Shown in pieces: positions 20,490-34,847 of a stretch of 42,960 nt of DNA (position 1 is its first letter; every line of letters begins with the position of its first letter). The stretch is taken from sequence record PQ847473.1. One strand, written 5' to 3'. The DNA comes from Escherichia phage vB_EcoP_P64441. A program made the translations under genes and the position numbers. The notes below the pieces were generated by a model. The model was not told where the DNA came from and did no database searches. It saw nothing but the letters and a program-made list of their open reading frames with translations.

Positions 20490-21071
20490 TTATTCGCTTA
20501 CATTAACCCAATCAGGACGCTCACCCTTACCGCAGTAAAAGTCAATCAGGTCTAGTAAGCGTGGATAATACTTCAGCGAACTCTTACCGTCCATTTCCGC
20601 AACCTGGCGCTTACTGAAGCTGCGCCACTCTGCTGCCGTATGCTGCTGACATCCTACACGCACTATGTCATTACAGATACTAATGAAGTACGTTTCTCCG
20701 TATATAATGACAGTCTTGGCGCCGCGCAGGTCAGCGCGGCGCAGGTTAGCGCTGCGCAGGTCAGCTTCGCGCAGGTCAGCGTCGCGCAGGTCAGTGCCGG
20801 TCAGGTCAGCGCCGCGCAGGTCAGCGCCGCGCAGGTCAACGTCGCGCAGGTCAGCGCCGCTCAGGTCAGCGCCGCGCAGGTCAGTGCCGGTCAGGTCAGC
20901 GCCGCGCAGGTTAGCGTAGCGCAGGTTAGCGCCGCGCAGGTCAACGTCGCGCAGGTTAGCACTGCTCAGGTCAGCGTCGCGCAGGTCAGCGTCGCGCAGG
21001 TTAGCGCGGCGCAGGTCAACGCTGTGCAGTCTTCCTAACTTATACTTTTCGCAGATTTCTTGATAGTTCAT
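20490..21071 (-). CDS. Pentapeptide-repeat protein 2 (about 22 A(D/N)LxG/R-type repeats plus a roughly 75-aa non-repeat C-terminal domain)
   Basis: '[56 protein letters not shown]...' is a continuous pentapeptide repeat as in Qnr/MfpA DNA mimics. Encoded by a 15-bp tandem DNA repeat. The N-terminus is paralogous to 27205..27741. Confidence 0.8.
20718..21030. repeat. 15-bp tandem repeat array (coding; pentapeptide repeats)
   Basis: Units such as 'gcgcaggtcagcgcc' / 'gcgcaggttagcgcc' repeated about 20 times. Confidence 0.9.
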
Positions 21072-27204: not shown

Positions 27205-27741
27205 TTAGATACTAACCCAATCAGCGACGCGCAGGTCAGCGTCGCGCAGGTCAGTGCCGGTCAGGTCAGCGCCGCGCAGGTCAGCGCCGCGCAGGTTAGC
27301 GCCAATCAGGTTAGCGTCGCGCAGGTTAGCGCCGCTCAGGTCAGCGCCGCGCAGGTTAGCGCCGCGCAGGTTAGCGCCGTGCAGGTCAGCGCTGCGCAGG
27401 TCAGCGCCGCTCAGGTCAGCGCCGCTCAGGTCAGCGATGTTCAGGTCAGCGTAGCGCAGGTCAGCGCCGCGCAGGTCAGCGCCGCTCAGGTCAGCGCCGC
27501 GCAGGTTAGCGCCAATCAGGTTAGCGTCGCGCAGCTTAGCGTCGCTCAGGTCAGCGACGCGCAGGTCAGCGTCGCTCAGGTCAGCGTAGCGCAGGTCAGC
27601 GCCGCTCAGGTCAGCGCCGCGCAGGTCAGCGTCGAGCAGGTTAGCGCGGCGCAGGTCAGCGCCGCACAGGTCAGCGCCGCACAGGTCAGCGCCTTCCAAG
27701 GATTCCAACTTGTATTTATTACAGATATTGTCATAAGTCAT
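27205..27741 (-). CDS. Pentapeptide-repeat protein 1 (about 30 contiguous pentapeptide repeats)
   Basis: '[44 protein letters not shown]...' runs almost to the C-terminus. Likely start is the ATG at 27741 (MTYDNICNKYKL) with a GAGG ribosome-binding site; the track ORF extends to 27792. Confidence 0.8.
   Translation of the reverse strand: MTYDNICNKYKLESLEGADLCGADLCGADLRRANLLDADLRGADLSGADLRYADLSDADLRVADLSDAKLRDANLIGANLRGADLSGADLRGADLRYADLNIADLSGADLSGADLRSADLHGANLRGANLRGADLSGANLRDANLIGANLRGADLRGADLTGTDLRDADLRVADWVSI
27225..27695. repeat. 15-bp tandem repeat array (coding; pentapeptide repeats)
   Basis: About 30 units of 'gcgcaggtcagcgcc'-type repeats. Near-identical at the DNA level to the array at 20718-21030. 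Confidence 0.9.
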
Positions 27742-27751
27742 ATTAGTAACC

Positions 27752-27991
27752 TCAGTTAATTTTAATATTAAAACGTGCACAATACCCTTCAAGGGTCATC
27801 CCTACTTTAGCTGCTTTAAGACTGTAAGCTAACTTAAGAGCTTCCTTAGCGTCATGCTCACGAGCCAGCTTCTCAATCGTTACTTCATCATTACGCATCA
27901 GAATCATTTCGGGGTTCCGGTTAATCATTTCTGCATCTCCAGTTTGAAAAGGGCCATTGCAGCGTTCAGGCGAAACGCGGGTTGCATTCAT
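27752..27991 (-). CDS. Hypothetical protein (79 aa)
   Basis: ORF only. Confidence 0.3.
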   Translation of the reverse strand: MNATRVSPERCNGPFQTGDAEMINRNPEMILMRNDEVTIEKLAREHDAKEALKLAYSLKAAKVGMTLEGYCARFNIKIN

Positions 27992-30803: not shown

Positions 30804-31538
30804 TTACCTACGCTGTTGCTGCATCCATTCGTACAACTCACCCTGCGACCACTTAACCTGACGCGCTGTAGCGCCCTTAGTAGTCTCTTTAATCTCTTCA
30901 TACTCTACTACAGCATCCTTACTATGTATATACGTAGTACTATCATTACTTAGTATACTGCGCTCATACTCCTTCTTACTAAGCTCCGGCTTAGACTCAT
31001 GCTTCAGCCACTCATTATGTCTAGCATCAAGCATTGCATCTATCTCTAGTGCTAAAGCATCCAACGGCTCAGCGTCTATCCAATCCCTGTCCTCGCACCA
31101 CGTAGGGTTAAGATAGAGGCTATCATCCATATACCGCTTATCCTTCCTAGCGTTGTACTGCTTGTAATGCGCTGTAGCCTCATTAACTGCGCTCAGTACA
31201 GTACCAGCACGCTGCATAGTCTTAAGCCCTGCATAGCCTCTACTACGTCCTTCTAAGTAATCGTTCATGAGATTGTAATGCTTCAACTGGAAGTCATCAC
31301 TGTATGCCCAAGCCAGCACTACATCCTGCATCTTCAACGTAGCATCAGCTACAGCTATTATATTACGCCTAGCTACAGGCTTCTTATCGCTCCTAGCAGG
31401 CTTACTAGTACCTAAAGCAGCGTATGCCTCATCTTTAGTTAAGTACCAGTCATCACCTACTACATACACATTACAGCGCTTCCCATCTATAGTCTTCTTA
31501 CTGCGCTTCATCAATGTACCCGTCTCTTGCTTAGTCAT
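30804..31538 (-). CDS. Hypothetical early protein (244 aa); first gene after the putative left end
   Basis: ORF with an AGGGGA ribosome-binding site. No recognisable motif. Confidence 0.5.
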   Translation of the reverse strand: MTKQETGTLMKRSKKTIDGKRCNVYVVGDDWYLTKDEAYAALGTSKPARSDKKPVARRNIIAVADATLKMQDVVLAWAYSDDFQLKHYNLMNDYLEGRSRGYAGLKTMQRAGTVLSAVNEATAHYKQYNARKDKRYMDDSLYLNPTWCEDRDWIDAEPLDALALEIDAMLDARHNEWLKHESKPELSKKEYERSILSNDSTTYIHSKDAVVEYEEIKETTKGATARQVKWSQGELYEWMQQQRR

Positions 31539-31539
31539 A

Positions 31540-32085
31540 ATGTCTCAATTATCCCCTACTATTATGTGTTGGTAGTGTATTGGCTGTGACTCACCTTATT
31601 GTTAAAAGCTGTACAACTAATACACCAACTAATACAACTACCCGCAGCATAACACAGCACTAACCCTGCGTCAACCATTGCACAGCCTGGAAGCAAAAGA
31701 GGTAAGCCTAACGATACACCTGCACTACCTCTGACTCTCTACTGCGGATAAAATAGGCAAGAGCAGAGAGGACAGCATCTCCCTGTGCTCCACAAAATAG
31801 GCAAGACTAACCTCTCCCGCACCCTCAACAGAGAGCGCAGAGACAGCCAGCCAAGCCAGGTCCTGCCAGAGATACGCAGAGGCACCCCCTACCCTCCCTC
31901 CAGAAGATTCCCAGAGGCCGCCCCTACGGGGGGAACAGCGCGTTGGTCGGGTGAAGGAGGCCCTCGCGTGAGTATAATAAATTCAAGGTGCCTGTTTACA
32001 CTTGCAATCCTGAGCTATGTATGCTATGCCAAAGGATTCCCCAGAGATTCCAGGGGATTCCATTAGCAATTTCTCTAGCTATTCC
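31540..32085. other. Non-coding region, candidate genome-end / terminal-repeat region (collapsed in this circular assembly)
   Basis: About 550 bp with no credible ORF, lying between the last late gene and the first early gene. Contains short direct repeats ('aaaataggcaaga' twice, 'actaatacaNc' twice) and G/C-rich tracts ('ccctccctcc', 'cccctacgggggg'). Confidence 0.35.
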
Positions 32086-33648
32086 TTAGACAATACGAAT
32101 TTCACCACCATGCGGAGAGATAGGACTAGCTAAGTACGGACTACGCACTACTACGTACCCGTTCTCATCAGAAGAGATAACTGGAGGCTTACTAACGTCG
32201 TTAGTACTGAGCGCTACAGCTGTACCACCTGCTACGTGCCCTAACCAGAACCATGTACCCAGGTTGTGGTCAATCTTCAGTGCAACATACAGGAGCTGCG
32301 TATCCGTGTACTCAATGTTAGTGCTCCATACTGCGCGGCTATCAGCACCACTGGTTTCAGTACTAAGAGCAGCGCCTACAGTGAACTGTGCCTGACTACC
32401 GTTAGACATCTTCCCGTTCACCTTCTGAGGATGGTACTTGCTGGTCTGTACTGCCTTACCTACCAGTGCATCCAGCCCTACGTTCGGGTCGTACACTGTG
32501 TAAGTCTGCTGTACAGTACTGGCTTGCTTAGCGTTAGCTAGTGCTAAGCGCTGGTTACCTGCGATGATTCCGGTAGGGAAGTGCAAATCCGAGAGGTTGT
32601 AGTTACTGCCTTCGATAATATCCCACCATACAGCACCACCACCAATGCGGTTGTTAGGCTGCATGATAACGTTCGTGTTCTCATTGAACCCACCGAACAT
32701 CTTTAGACTGCTTCCGTACACCCAGCAGTTATCCATAGTGATAGCGTTGGCACTGGTAGCGATACAACCATAAGCACCAGCGGCATTGCTCTCGATATAG
32801 CAGGAGTCGAACTTAATGTTGTAAGCGCCTTGGATAAACACACCATGTGTCTGGAAGCTCTCGATACCGCAGTTAAACAGCGTCAGTGCTTCTACAGCAG
32901 ATACGAACTTAATACCTACGTCGCATACACCTGTATGCACAGAGATAAGCGGTTGGATATTCACTTCATCACGGAACTCATAACGATGCAGGCCTACTGT
33001 GTAGCTGCCGTTGCACTGCAAGTTCTTGAACGAGCTGTAGAAGCAACGTTCTGTATAAACCAGCTGCTGCACATCCACTGCTACAATGTCCGTAACCTCA
33101 CACCCGAATACATGGTTACGCAGGCGCATACCTTGATAGAAGGACATGAGCGTAGCGTTTCGGATACAGGTACCAACAGTAAGGAACTCCTCCTGACCGC
33201 TACCAAATACTGATACAAGTCTCCCTGAGGTATTGATATAACCAGTCTCAAGGAAGATGTTAGTACTGTCTGCGGTATCTGTGCGCCCTACAATGCGAGC
33301 ACCCTGCATATCCAGAGTAGTAATGCGGCGACGAGGTGTAGTAACTTCAATAGCACTAGGGGACTCTGAGGCCAGCACATACACTTTATTAGCAATATAG
33401 TAGCTCTTCCAGCCTGTAGCTTTAACTGTACCACCACCACGGCGATAGCACTCTACAAGCGCAGCCTGAAAGGCAGCCGAGTCATCTGTAGCGTTAGGGT
33501 TGCGTGTACCATCTGGAAGGAGGGCATCACCTTTAGCCCCGAAGTCGTCTACATAAACGTCACGACCTAGTGCTTCGGATACGCTACCTCCGTTATAGCT
33601 TACCCCTTCTGAATCTACACGTACTTCAATATTAGCGACTAATGTCAT
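32086..33648 (-). CDS. Tailspike 2 / putative capsule depolymerase (pectate-lyase-like beta-helix)
   Basis: 'VYVDDFGAKGDALLPDGTRNPNATDDSAAFQAALVEC' is the N-terminal signature of pectate_lyase_3-type beta-helix tailspikes. 520 aa with no T7 gp17-like N-terminal anchor. Confidence 0.65.
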   Translation of the reverse strand: MTLVANIEVRVDSEGVSYNGGSVSEALGRDVYVDDFGAKGDALLPDGTRNPNATDDSAAFQAALVECYRRGGGTVKATGWKSYYIANKVYVLASESPSAIEVTTPRRRITTLDMQGARIVGRTDTADSTNIFLETGYINTSGRLVSVFGSGQEEFLTVGTCIRNATLMSFYQGMRLRNHVFGCEVTDIVAVDVQQLVYTERCFYSSFKNLQCNGSYTVGLHRYEFRDEVNIQPLISVHTGVCDVGIKFVSAVEALTLFNCGIESFQTHGVFIQGAYNIKFDSCYIESNAAGAYGCIATSANAITMDNCWVYGSSLKMFGGFNENTNVIMQPNNRIGGGAVWWDIIEGSNYNLSDLHFPTGIIAGNQRLALANAKQASTVQQTYTVYDPNVGLDALVGKAVQTSKYHPQKVNGKMSNGSQAQFTVGAALSTETSGADSRAVWSTNIEYTDTQLLYVALKIDHNLGTWFWLGHVAGGTAVALSTNDVSKPPVISSDENGYVVVRSPYLASPISPHGGEIRIV

Positions 33649-33657
33649 GTTCTTCCC

Positions 33658-34221
33658 TTACTTAGGCATAGCAGCGAGTGCTGCTTGCACTGATTTGAAT
33701 TCATTGCCGATAGCTTTAGCTTCCCACTGACGGCGCTCCCAGAGGCCCCAGCACACCTTATTAGGCTTAACCTTTACCAACGTACTGCAGTCGTACTTAA
33801 CCCCGTTACGGGTGATGTAGCGCCAGCTGAGCACGGCTTTAGCTGCACCTGCAGTATCGCCTTGCATTAGCTTTTGCTTCGTGGTACTGTTCTTAAAACC
33901 TGAGATGCCGATGTTATAGGTCATGTCCAAAGCACCGAGAATCTGTACGTCCGTAAGCGACATAGGAAGCCCGTCAAGAGACTTAGCATGCTCACCAGCT
34001 GATTCTATCAGTTGTTGCTTACACTGCGTCAGCGTGGCTGTATCACCCATCCTAACGCCCTTAGTCTCACCATAGCAGATGGTAGGTACGCCAGCTGAGT
34101 CTTTGTATGCTTTAAGGGAGAGGCCTTCGTTATGCTGTATTACCATAGCGATGCTGGCGCCCAGCAGGGAAGTCCCTGCCAGCGCAGCCTTAACCTTGTT
34201 GCTTATGCTCATAGTATTCAA
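33658..34221 (-). CDS. SAR endolysin (GH24 lysozyme, T4/lambda-R-like)
   Basis: N-terminal Gly/Ala/Ser-rich weakly hydrophobic segment 'KAALAGTSLLGASIAMVI' (signal-arrest-release type), followed by 'EGLSLKAYKDSAGVPTICYGET', which gives the E...D...T catalytic triad spacing of GH24 lysozymes. Confidence 0.8.
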   Translation of the reverse strand: MNTMSISNKVKAALAGTSLLGASIAMVIQHNEGLSLKAYKDSAGVPTICYGETKGVRMGDTATLTQCKQQLIESAGEHAKSLDGLPMSLTDVQILGALDMTYNIGISGFKNSTTKQKLMQGDTAGAAKAVLSWRYITRNGVKYDCSTLVKVKPNKVCWGLWERRQWEAKAIGNEFKSVQAALAAMPK

Positions 34222-34438
34222 GGCCCTTCTCTAATGCTCGCTCCTTGAGCTTGTACTCTTTGTGTTTGTAGTATGCGTTCCATGCAAAGGTCAGTACAGC
34301 TACAACCGTACCGACTATGAAGGAGATTGTCCCCCAGTTCCAAGACATTATGTCTGCCATCCATCCACCGCCCATAGTGGCGACAGATACGTTTGTTCCT
34401 ACACGGGTAATAGTTTCCCCGTTAATTGGTAGACTCAT
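34190..34438 (-). CDS. Putative holin (pinholin-like)
   Basis: Transmembrane segment 'WGTISFIVGTVVAVLTFAW' and a charged C-terminus, immediately upstream of the SAR endolysin. The track ORF runs to 34513, but likely starts are the internal ATGs at about 34438 or 34375. Confidence 0.5.
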   Translation of the reverse strand: MSLPINGETITRVGTNVSVATMGGGWMADIMSWNWGTISFIVGTVVAVLTFAWNAYYKHKEYKLKERALEKGLEYYEHKQQG

Positions 34439-34847
34439 CGCTCTCGTCCTTAGTTCTTCCGAGTTTGCGGAACAACAGGACGATGATGAGGATTGCGATT
34501 GGAACCGCTGCACCTGCCAGTCCTGCTAGAATTATGCTAGTACCATCGTTGTTAACAACCTGTACTCGCTCCGTGTTAATGGTTCCAGTAGTAACTGAAC
34601 TGGACTGCTTCTTGGTAGAAGTATCCAGCGTGCCTACGTTAGAATCTTTAATTGATGTTTCATTGTCCGTGCTGGAGTCGGACTTGCCATTAAGGCCTAC
34701 AGTTTGTTTCGTATTCTCTGCGCCAGCTTGCACGGACAGGTCTGGCTTAGAGCCAATAAGATCTGTCAATGCAGAGGTCGCTGAGCAGCCTACCAAACAC
34801 CCTGTAAGAGCCGTAGCGAGGACTAACCCAGCGACCTTAGCCCGCAT
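34422..34847 (-). CDS. Putative unimolecular spanin (outer-membrane lipoprotein with C-terminal transmembrane anchor)
   Basis: N-terminus 'MRAKVAGLVLATALTGCLVGC' has a lipobox (LTGC). C-terminus 'IILAGLAGAAVPIAILIIVLLFRKLGRTKDESDESTN' is a transmembrane segment with a charged tail. This matches the T1 gp11-type u-spanin topology. 141 aa. Confidence 0.5.
   Translation of the reverse strand: MRAKVAGLVLATALTGCLVGCSATSALTDLIGSKPDLSVQAGAENTKQTVGLNGKSDSSTDNETSIKDSNVGTLDTSTKKQSSSVTTGTINTERVQVVNNDGTSIILAGLAGAAVPIAILIIVLLFRKLGRTKDESDESTN

Follow-up and report, generated by a model that had tools for sequence, protein, structure and literature searches.

Positions 33658-34847 of a 42,960-nucleotide (nt) stretch of DNA from Escherichia phage vB_EcoP_P64441 (record PQ847473.1; the whole stretch is called the window below) carry, on the minus strand, what is very probably the lysis module, expressed late, of a KP34-like podophage, composed of a unimolecular spanin (u-spanin), a holin resembling that of phage P21 and an endolysin with a signal-anchor-release (SAR) segment. 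The original prediction had placed three lysis genes here in the order spanin, holin, endolysin. This arrangement was recovered, as the interval runs exactly from the stop codon of the endolysin gene to the start codon of the spanin gene. The three genes close the late gene block, following the gene of the terminase large subunit (TerL), and correspond to the following features.

34422-34847, minus strand: unimolecular spanin, 141 amino acids (aa), of the T1 gp11 / KP34 gp54 family (phrog_1804).
34190-34438, minus strand: holin, 82 aa, P21 S-like, candidate pinholin (PF04971, phrog_20).
33658-34212, minus strand: predicted GH24 endolysin, 184 aa from the ATG at 34212 (PF00959, phrog_7).

We are highly confident, from both topology and homology, that the 141-aa protein is a u-spanin of the T1 gp11 family. 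Its N-terminus starts with the basic residues MRAK, followed by the hydrophobic core VAGLVLATA and then by two lipoboxes, LTGC (Cys17) and LVGC (Cys21), the lipoprotein signal being judged by the pattern [LVI][ASTVI][GAS]C together with homology. Towards the other end, the most hydrophobic 19-mer corresponds to residues 105-123, with a Kyte-Doolittle (KD) value of 2.81 (2.8-2.9 across residues 105-126), and a basic tail, RKLGRTK, comes next. The lipoprotein signal and the C-terminal anchor that had been proposed to coexist in this polypeptide were thus both found, the only correction being that the single LTGC lipobox proposed is in fact one of two.

34785-34847, minus strand: signal peptide of the spanin, containing two lipoboxes in tandem, LTGC (Cys17 at 34797-34799) and LVGC (Cys21 at 34785-34787), located by regular expression and direct reading.
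34470-34535, minus strand: predicted C-terminal transmembrane anchor of the spanin, approximately residues 105-126, from hydropathy and an AlphaFold helix at residues 103-135.

The residue at position +2 after the candidate acylated cysteine is Leu18 for Cys17 or Ser22 for Cys21, neither of them an Asp. According to the sorting rule of the E. coli Lol system, lipoproteins lacking Asp at +2 are directed to the outer membrane, and outer-membrane sorting of the spanin is therefore expected by this rule.

Comparison of the protein with T1 gp11 by BLASTP gave 36% identity (E 3e-22), with blocks of periplasmic residues conserved, and its match to phrog_1804, 'Rz-like spanin', reached 2.5e-39. Both proteins possess a lipobox as well as a transmembrane domain (TMD) at the C-terminus, are of similar length (133 aa in T1, 141 aa in the window) and share the periplasmic motifs GCS-SAL, PD, Q-GAENTKQ and DSN-G-D-S-KK; moreover, in T1 as in the window the spanin is paired with a lysozyme of hydrophobic N-terminus. 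In contrast, the TMD sequences are unrelated, and T1 gp11 contains a single lipobox, LSGC. T1 gp11 is the prototype u-spanin, a status reportedly attached to the work of Summer et al. (2007). As found by Kongari et al. (2018), T1 gene 11 complements a lambda RzRz1 defect, and their T1 gp11 family lists KP34, F19, NTUH-K2044-K1-1, phiKDA1 and LIMElight (PMC6139136). These authors counted a protein as homologous when it matched a family member at 40% identity or more across 40% of the length (PMC6139136), and the window spanin is 67% identical over its full length to gp54 of KP34, a listed member. It is also 86% identical to the 'putative spanin' of phage PAS7. A tblastn search retrieved matches in 1089 phage records, 256 of them at 80% query coverage or more; most of the matching records were of phages of Klebsiella and Escherichia, with u-spanin or Rz-like spanin as the annotation. 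In a large protein collection, 1001 clusters were recovered at E <= 1e-5. In NCBIfam, neither the spanin nor the holin nor the 60-aa open reading frame (ORF) located upstream of them had a model, and the lysozyme matches were all below threshold.

The lipoprotein-signal pattern was matched by the spanin alone among the ORFs of at least 40 aa on both strands of the whole 43-kb window. Likewise, no separate Rz/Rz1 pair was found elsewhere in the genome, where no other ORF of at least 40 aa on either strand had a lipobox; the spanin would therefore have no Rz1-type partner. The remaining hydrophobic ORFs of the genome were mostly short frames nested in large genes. The lack of another lipobox ORF, together with the matches to T1 gp11 and phrog_1804, agrees with the proposal that the phage relies on a unimolecular spanin and not on an Rz/Rz1 pair.

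The AlphaFold model of the spanin, built on a 34-sequence alignment, was of low confidence (predicted local distance difference test [pLDDT] 51, predicted template modelling score [pTM] 0.20). It displayed a signal helix, a short helix covering residues 24-28 and, as its best-scored part, a membrane helix at the C-terminus (residues 103-135). The periplasmic part, about 82 residues rich in Ser, Thr, Asp and Asn, appeared as coil in this low-confidence model. One observation from it weighs on the other side, namely that the beta-strand pattern reported for the gp11 family (several strands after a short helix) was not reproduced, although at a pLDDT of 51 the model neither confirms nor refutes this pattern. 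By inference, 82 residues would have to be largely extended to span a periplasm of about 20-25 nm, which would fit the lack of a compact fold.

The 82-aa product of the second gene had been put forward as a small membrane protein and holin candidate, in agreement with its matches to PF04971, 'Bacteriophage P21 holin S' (30.8 bits for a gathering score of 26, residues 14-66 aligning on profile positions 10-63 of 64), and to the phrog_20 holin (2.4e-19). Its identity is 53% with KP34 gp55 and 78% with the PAS7 homologue. The protein contains two hydrophobic segments, a weak one at residues 13-31 (KD 0.77) and a stronger one at residues 35-56 (KD 1.38), and ends with a highly charged tail (seven K/R and five D/E). 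That it is a holin is supported by these family matches, and a pinholin of the P21 S type, as had been claimed, is in our opinion probable on the basis of homology. Several points nevertheless weigh against this subtype and would suit a holin of the canonical large-hole kind, or one of another class with a single TMD, within a cassette otherwise as described. A single transmembrane helix was predicted by Phobius/TMHMM in the KP34 and JKP2 homologues by their annotators (JKP2: PMC10194101), and the first hydrophobic segment is weak. Unlike S21, the holin of P21, the window holin has a single ATG, and no dual-start motif was found in it. SAR endolysins are not exclusive to pinholins, since phage P1 is described in PMC9025707 as pairing the SAR endolysin Lyz with the holin LydA. 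Finally, the size of a pinhole is not predictable from sequence. On the other side, the PF04971 score is above the curated threshold and the match covers both hydrophobic segments. In a pairwise alignment with S21, the two segments are in register at about 22% identity, and the small residues S39, G43 and A47 of the window holin align with G40, S44 and G48 of S21. As for the weakness of the first segment, its hydrophobicity is not below that of TMD1 of S21 (KD 0.77 versus 0.22). We therefore retain a large-hole or one-TMD holin as a credible but clearly less likely alternative to a pinholin of the P21 type.

Translation of the holin is expected to start at an ATG preceded by AAGGA. A longer 107-aa form starting at a GTG, listed by the ORF finder, was considered as a dual-start antiholin and rejected, as a stop codon stands immediately upstream in PAS7 and no in-frame upstream start exists in KP34. 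The Shine-Dalgarno-like AGGA of this form sits within the conserved spanin coding sequence LAGLAGAAV.

The third gene was proposed to encode a GH24 lysozyme with an N-terminus of the SAR type. The enzyme family was readily recognized, with matches to PF00959 (7e-24) and to the phrog_7 endolysin (1e-40), 60% identity to KP34 gp56 and a catalytic triad whose columns are invariant among the endolysins of the window, KP34, PAS7 and T1 (gp12). Among its best solved relatives is the P21 endolysin R21 (PDB 3HDE/3HDF, about 1e-13), and the alignment with 3HDE starts at residue 4, hence takes in the SAR segment.

34081-34128, minus strand: predicted catalytic triad E29-(8 aa)-D38-(5 aa)-T44, from a pattern match.
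34138-34194, minus strand: candidate SAR segment, approximately residues 7-25 (VKAALAGTSLLGASIAMVI), from composition and alignment with R21 in 3HDE.

On these grounds the 184-aa protein is likely to be a SAR endolysin of the R21 type, its release from the membrane being deduced from homology. The N-terminus displays K6 and K8, then AALAGTSLLGASIAMVI, with a 17-residue core containing 59% Gly, Ala, Ser or Thr, and the catalytic E29 lies four residues past I25, the end of the hydrophobic segment. Cysteines are found at positions 46, 64, 142 and 154, none of them within residues 1-28; a SAR segment devoid of cysteine would imply activation of the R21 type and not the disulfide isomerisation of P1 Lyz. 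The same N-terminus could alternatively be a Sec signal peptide that is cleaved to export a soluble enzyme with no SAR domain. Direct reading of the sequence indeed reveals a possible signal-peptidase site, with the acceptable -3/-1 pair S-I-A before Met23, which counts against a SAR segment, and a 'signal peptide' was predicted in the JKP2 homologue by its authors (PMC10194101). This pair, however, is not conserved, being changed to A-I-T in KP34, L-F-A in PAS7 and S-I-T in phage ECO104 4-5-2. The richness of the segment in small residues is typical of SAR domains, and the segment aligns with that of R21, which joins the active fold; a catalytic Glu so close to the hydrophobic segment also argues against cleavage. 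In addition, an active lysozyme secreted constitutively would leave the adjacent holin pointless. A cleaved signal peptide thus appears improbable, and the R21-type SAR segment is the interpretation kept below.

Regarding the start of this gene, a TTG at 34221, three codons ahead and likewise from the ORF finder, was considered and rejected in favour of the ATG at 34212, which fits the N-termini of the KP34 and PAS7 proteins.

The three genes are tightly packed, with overlaps of 17 nt between spanin and holin and of 23 nt between holin and endolysin, and are flanked by the following genes.

35056-36879, minus strand: TerL (PF22530, phrog_38), upstream of the cassette as in KP34.
34847-35029, minus strand: conserved 60-aa ORF (phrog_7375, 4e-24), homologue of KP34 gp53.
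32086-33648, minus strand: predicted beta-helix tailspike, 520 aa (PF13229, weak match; phrog_17640), at the position of KP34 gp57.

The stop codon of the 60-aa ORF overlaps the start codon of the spanin gene as TGATG, and the tailspike gene begins 9 nt downstream of the endolysin stop. Good ribosome-binding sites were seen only for the 60-aa ORF (AAGGAG) and the holin (AAGGA), the spanin start having none, and the AAGGAG is the only strong Shine-Dalgarno sequence ahead of the cassette. From the overlaps, we infer that translation of the three lysis genes is likely to be coupled. The 60-aa ORF is 63% identical to KP34 gp53 and 78% identical to its PAS7 homologue. It is Ala-rich and probably helical, and has no hydrophobic segment.

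This arrangement also bears on the identity of the first gene product. Phage lipoproteins are known to act in superinfection exclusion or receptor blocking, as T5 Llp or the Cor proteins do, and one database source names the spanin homologues 'outer membrane lipoprotein SlyB', but such a role is very improbable for the 141-aa protein given its clear homology to T1 gp11, a protein that complements the spanin defect of lambda (PMC6139136), its C-terminal membrane anchor, which exclusion lipoproteins lack, the embedding of its gene in a lysis cassette to which it is coupled by overlaps, and the lack of any other spanin candidate in this genome, whose host is Gram-negative.

With a u-spanin, a P21-like holin and a SAR endolysin, the working of the cassette can be proposed from the paradigms of P21, T1 and lambda (summarised in PMC6139136). 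The lysozyme would be exported by the Sec pathway and kept inactive at the inner membrane, to which its weakly hydrophobic N-terminal segment would tie it, while the P21-S-like holin would build up in the same membrane. At a set time, small holes formed by the holin would collapse the membrane potential, and this depolarisation would free the N-terminal segment of the lysozyme from the bilayer, allowing the enzyme to refold and to degrade the peptidoglycan. The spanin would by then be anchored in the outer membrane through its lipid-modified N-terminal Cys and in the inner membrane through its C-terminal helix, with the Ser/Thr-rich stretch of about 82 residues threading the murein. Once the murein is gone, it would bring both membranes together and fuse them, thereby destroying the outer membrane. 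A spanin gene placed first would be harmless in such a scheme, since a spanin stays inert as long as the peptidoglycan is present. A general reservation applies to this picture, in that the roles attributed to KP34-type cassettes in PMC4411677 and PMC10194101 rest on in silico analysis only.

The spanin-first order and the overlapping gene starts had been regarded as unusual, a view which could not be upheld, as both are present in KP34 and ECO104 4-5-2 and have been published. The succession of u-spanin, holin and endolysin with overlaps was described in 2015 by Eriksson et al. as a hallmark of the "Kp34likevirus", and set against the order holin, endolysin, Rz, Rz1 of phiKMV (PMC4411677). 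The SAR signal of the endolysin led the same authors to regard the holin as a pinholin (PMC4411677), and a later Drulisvirus paper repeated this interpretation of the cassette and pointed out the gene overlaps (PMC10194101). Spanin-first order is therefore unusual only against lambda, T1 or phiKMV, and is the norm for the KP34-like lineage.

KP34 itself, a Klebsiella phage and the Drulisvirus type phage within the Slopekvirinae, encodes the same three protein families as gp54, gp55 and gp56 (67, 53 and 60% identity to the window proteins, respectively). Its layout is TerL, gp52, gp53, spanin gp54, holin gp55, endolysin gp56 and tail protein gp57, and the window follows it except that a gp52 homologue is missing between TerL and the 60-aa ORF. 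The two cassettes differ in their overlaps (8 and 17 nt in KP34, 17 and 23 nt in the window), in a 15-aa insertion found in the KP34 endolysin, in the second lipobox found in the window spanin and in their hosts, since the relatives of the window were isolated on E. coli and Salmonella and KP34 on Klebsiella. ECO104 4-5-2, the closest relative over the locus in the phage collection, has the same cassette in the same order with a different tailspike. In PAS7 the spanin gene is followed by a holin homologue annotated as hypothetical and a small ORF, then by a 'putative tail fiber protein' of 366 aa, and only then by the endolysin and the tailspike (1946-4470 of PAS7); in this phage a receptor-binding gene is inserted between holin and endolysin and splits the cassette.

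More distant systems share parts of this organization. In T1 the spanin comes last (holin 13, endolysin 12, spanin 11), and in the window first. With P21 the window has in common a holin of PF04971 and an endolysin whose alignment to R21 (3HDE) extends over both the SAR segment and the E/D/T triad, but the holins are only about 22% identical and the dual-start antiholin of S21 has no counterpart in the window. P21 has a two-component Rz/Rz1 spanin after its endolysin, in place of the u-spanin seen here. The cassette of phiKMV was reportedly studied by Briers et al. in 2011 and is said to comprise the pinholin KMV44, the SAR endolysin KMV45 and Rz/Rz1. Like the window phage, phiKMV is a podophage of the Autographiviridae with a pinholin and SAR endolysin pair at the right genome end, according to the summary in PMC4411677. 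It differs by its order of holin, endolysin, Rz and Rz1 and its two-component spanin, and the similarity to the KP34 cassette given in that same summary is about 30% over 22% coverage (PMC4411677).

The one real peculiarity of the cassette is the doubled lipobox of the spanin. DNA alignment with ECO104 4-5-2, PAS7 and KP34 indicated a clean in-frame insertion of 12 nt, by which LTGC-SATSAL becomes LTGC-LVGC-SATSAL.

34792-34803, minus strand: 12-nt insertion (AGGGTGTTTGGT on the coding strand) creating the second lipobox, from DNA alignment with the three relatives.

When the 120 closest spanin protein clusters were inspected, a doubled lipobox was present in seven (P0001-P0006 and P0008) and a single box in the other 113. 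The second box reads LVGC, LAGC or LSGC in these seven clusters, with the lipobox consensus kept in all. As judged from these sequences, the insertion is confined to a small subclade and is a minor variant, not a new kind of system. A recent tandem duplication was examined as the source of the second box and rejected on direct reading, the two 12-nt units agreeing at 6 of 12 bases; if a duplication did give rise to it, this duplication is not recent.

Cys17 and the single Cys of the KP34 spanin are equally far from the N-terminus, and Cys21 precedes the conserved mature N-terminus, so that acylation could take place at either residue. In the case of Cys17, the mature spanin would start with Cys-Leu-Val-Gly-Cys and would expose a free periplasmic cysteine, Cys21, four residues from the lipid anchor. 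Two-component spanins need intermolecular disulfides. For u-spanins, a periplasmic cysteine was present in none of the 58 proteins surveyed by Kongari et al. (PMC6139136). It is conceivable, although we hold it to be unlikely, that the insertion is functional and not neutral, in which case this subclade could be the first u-spanins with disulfide-linked dimers or with alternative acylation sites.

The genome as a whole is, from sequence comparison, that of a KP34-like podophage of the Slopekvirinae (Autographiviridae) infecting an enterobacterium. The window shares 78-85% nucleotide identity with the E. coli phage PAS7, with ECO104 4-5-2 and with S.Kent 1-2-1, and matches Klebsiella and Enterobacter relatives more weakly; PAS7 is classified in the Autographiviridae, Slopekvirinae, and the other close matches are unannotated wastewater phage contigs. 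Positions 1-127 are identical to 42834-42960. Such identical ends of 127 bases indicate that the window is a complete phage genome of about 42.8 kb whose assembly was closed into a circle. If KP34 is taken as a guide, the physical genome ends (terminal repeat) are probably located in a gene-free stretch of about 550 nt at 31539-32085, downstream of the tailspike. All the major genes of the window are on the minus strand.

Similarity to ECO104 4-5-2, the closest relative, ends at the nucleotide level exactly at the junction between endolysin and tailspike, as expected for the swapping of host-range modules. A second receptor-binding protein, a 1082-aa tail fiber/spike (37197-40445, minus strand; phrog_1171, 3e-252), is predicted besides the 520-aa tailspike.

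Scanning of positions 31500-37300 for sigma-70 promoters and terminators gave counts not above those of shuffled controls. A weak terminator-like hairpin was noted at 35064-35083 (minus strand), overlapping the last codons of TerL, as well as a direct repeat of 11 nt, AT-rich and present in 2.2 copies (TTAATTAATAT), at 35041-35064 (minus strand) in the intergenic region between TerL and the 60-aa ORF. Repeat and hairpin, upstream of the lysis block, may constitute a regulatory boundary.

Two pentapeptide-repeat proteins are encoded elsewhere in the window, one of 195 aa (27205-27792, minus strand; PF00805, 3e-58) and one of 193 aa (20490-21071, minus strand; PF00805, 4e-38). Their genes are tandem arrays of a 15-nt unit, with 31.5 and 20 copies respectively, the units matching at about 82-84%. 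A role as DNA mimics or in anti-defence is only a guess.

Among the related records, several GenBank entries titled 'Listeria phage LM ...' are 80-85% identical to the window genome and encode a spanin of the Gram-negative type; their Listeria host labels are almost certainly wrong. The record of ECO104 4-5-2, which is labelled E. coli and belongs to the same wastewater series, is flagged UNVERIFIED_ORG.

Altogether, the cassette is an ordinary KP34-type lysis cluster, already described in kind. It matters little beyond correct annotation, and it confirms that the genome belongs to the KP34-like lineage. The roles of pinholin and SAR endolysin in KP34-type phages appear to rest on in silico analysis, so that any member of the group would be equally suited for a first functional test. 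The window spanin also adds a natural variant to the T1 gp11 family of u-spanins, whose mechanism remains poorly understood. Its doubled lipobox represents a small natural experiment, which could identify the acylated cysteine and reveal whether a periplasmic cysteine is tolerated, or put to use, by a u-spanin.

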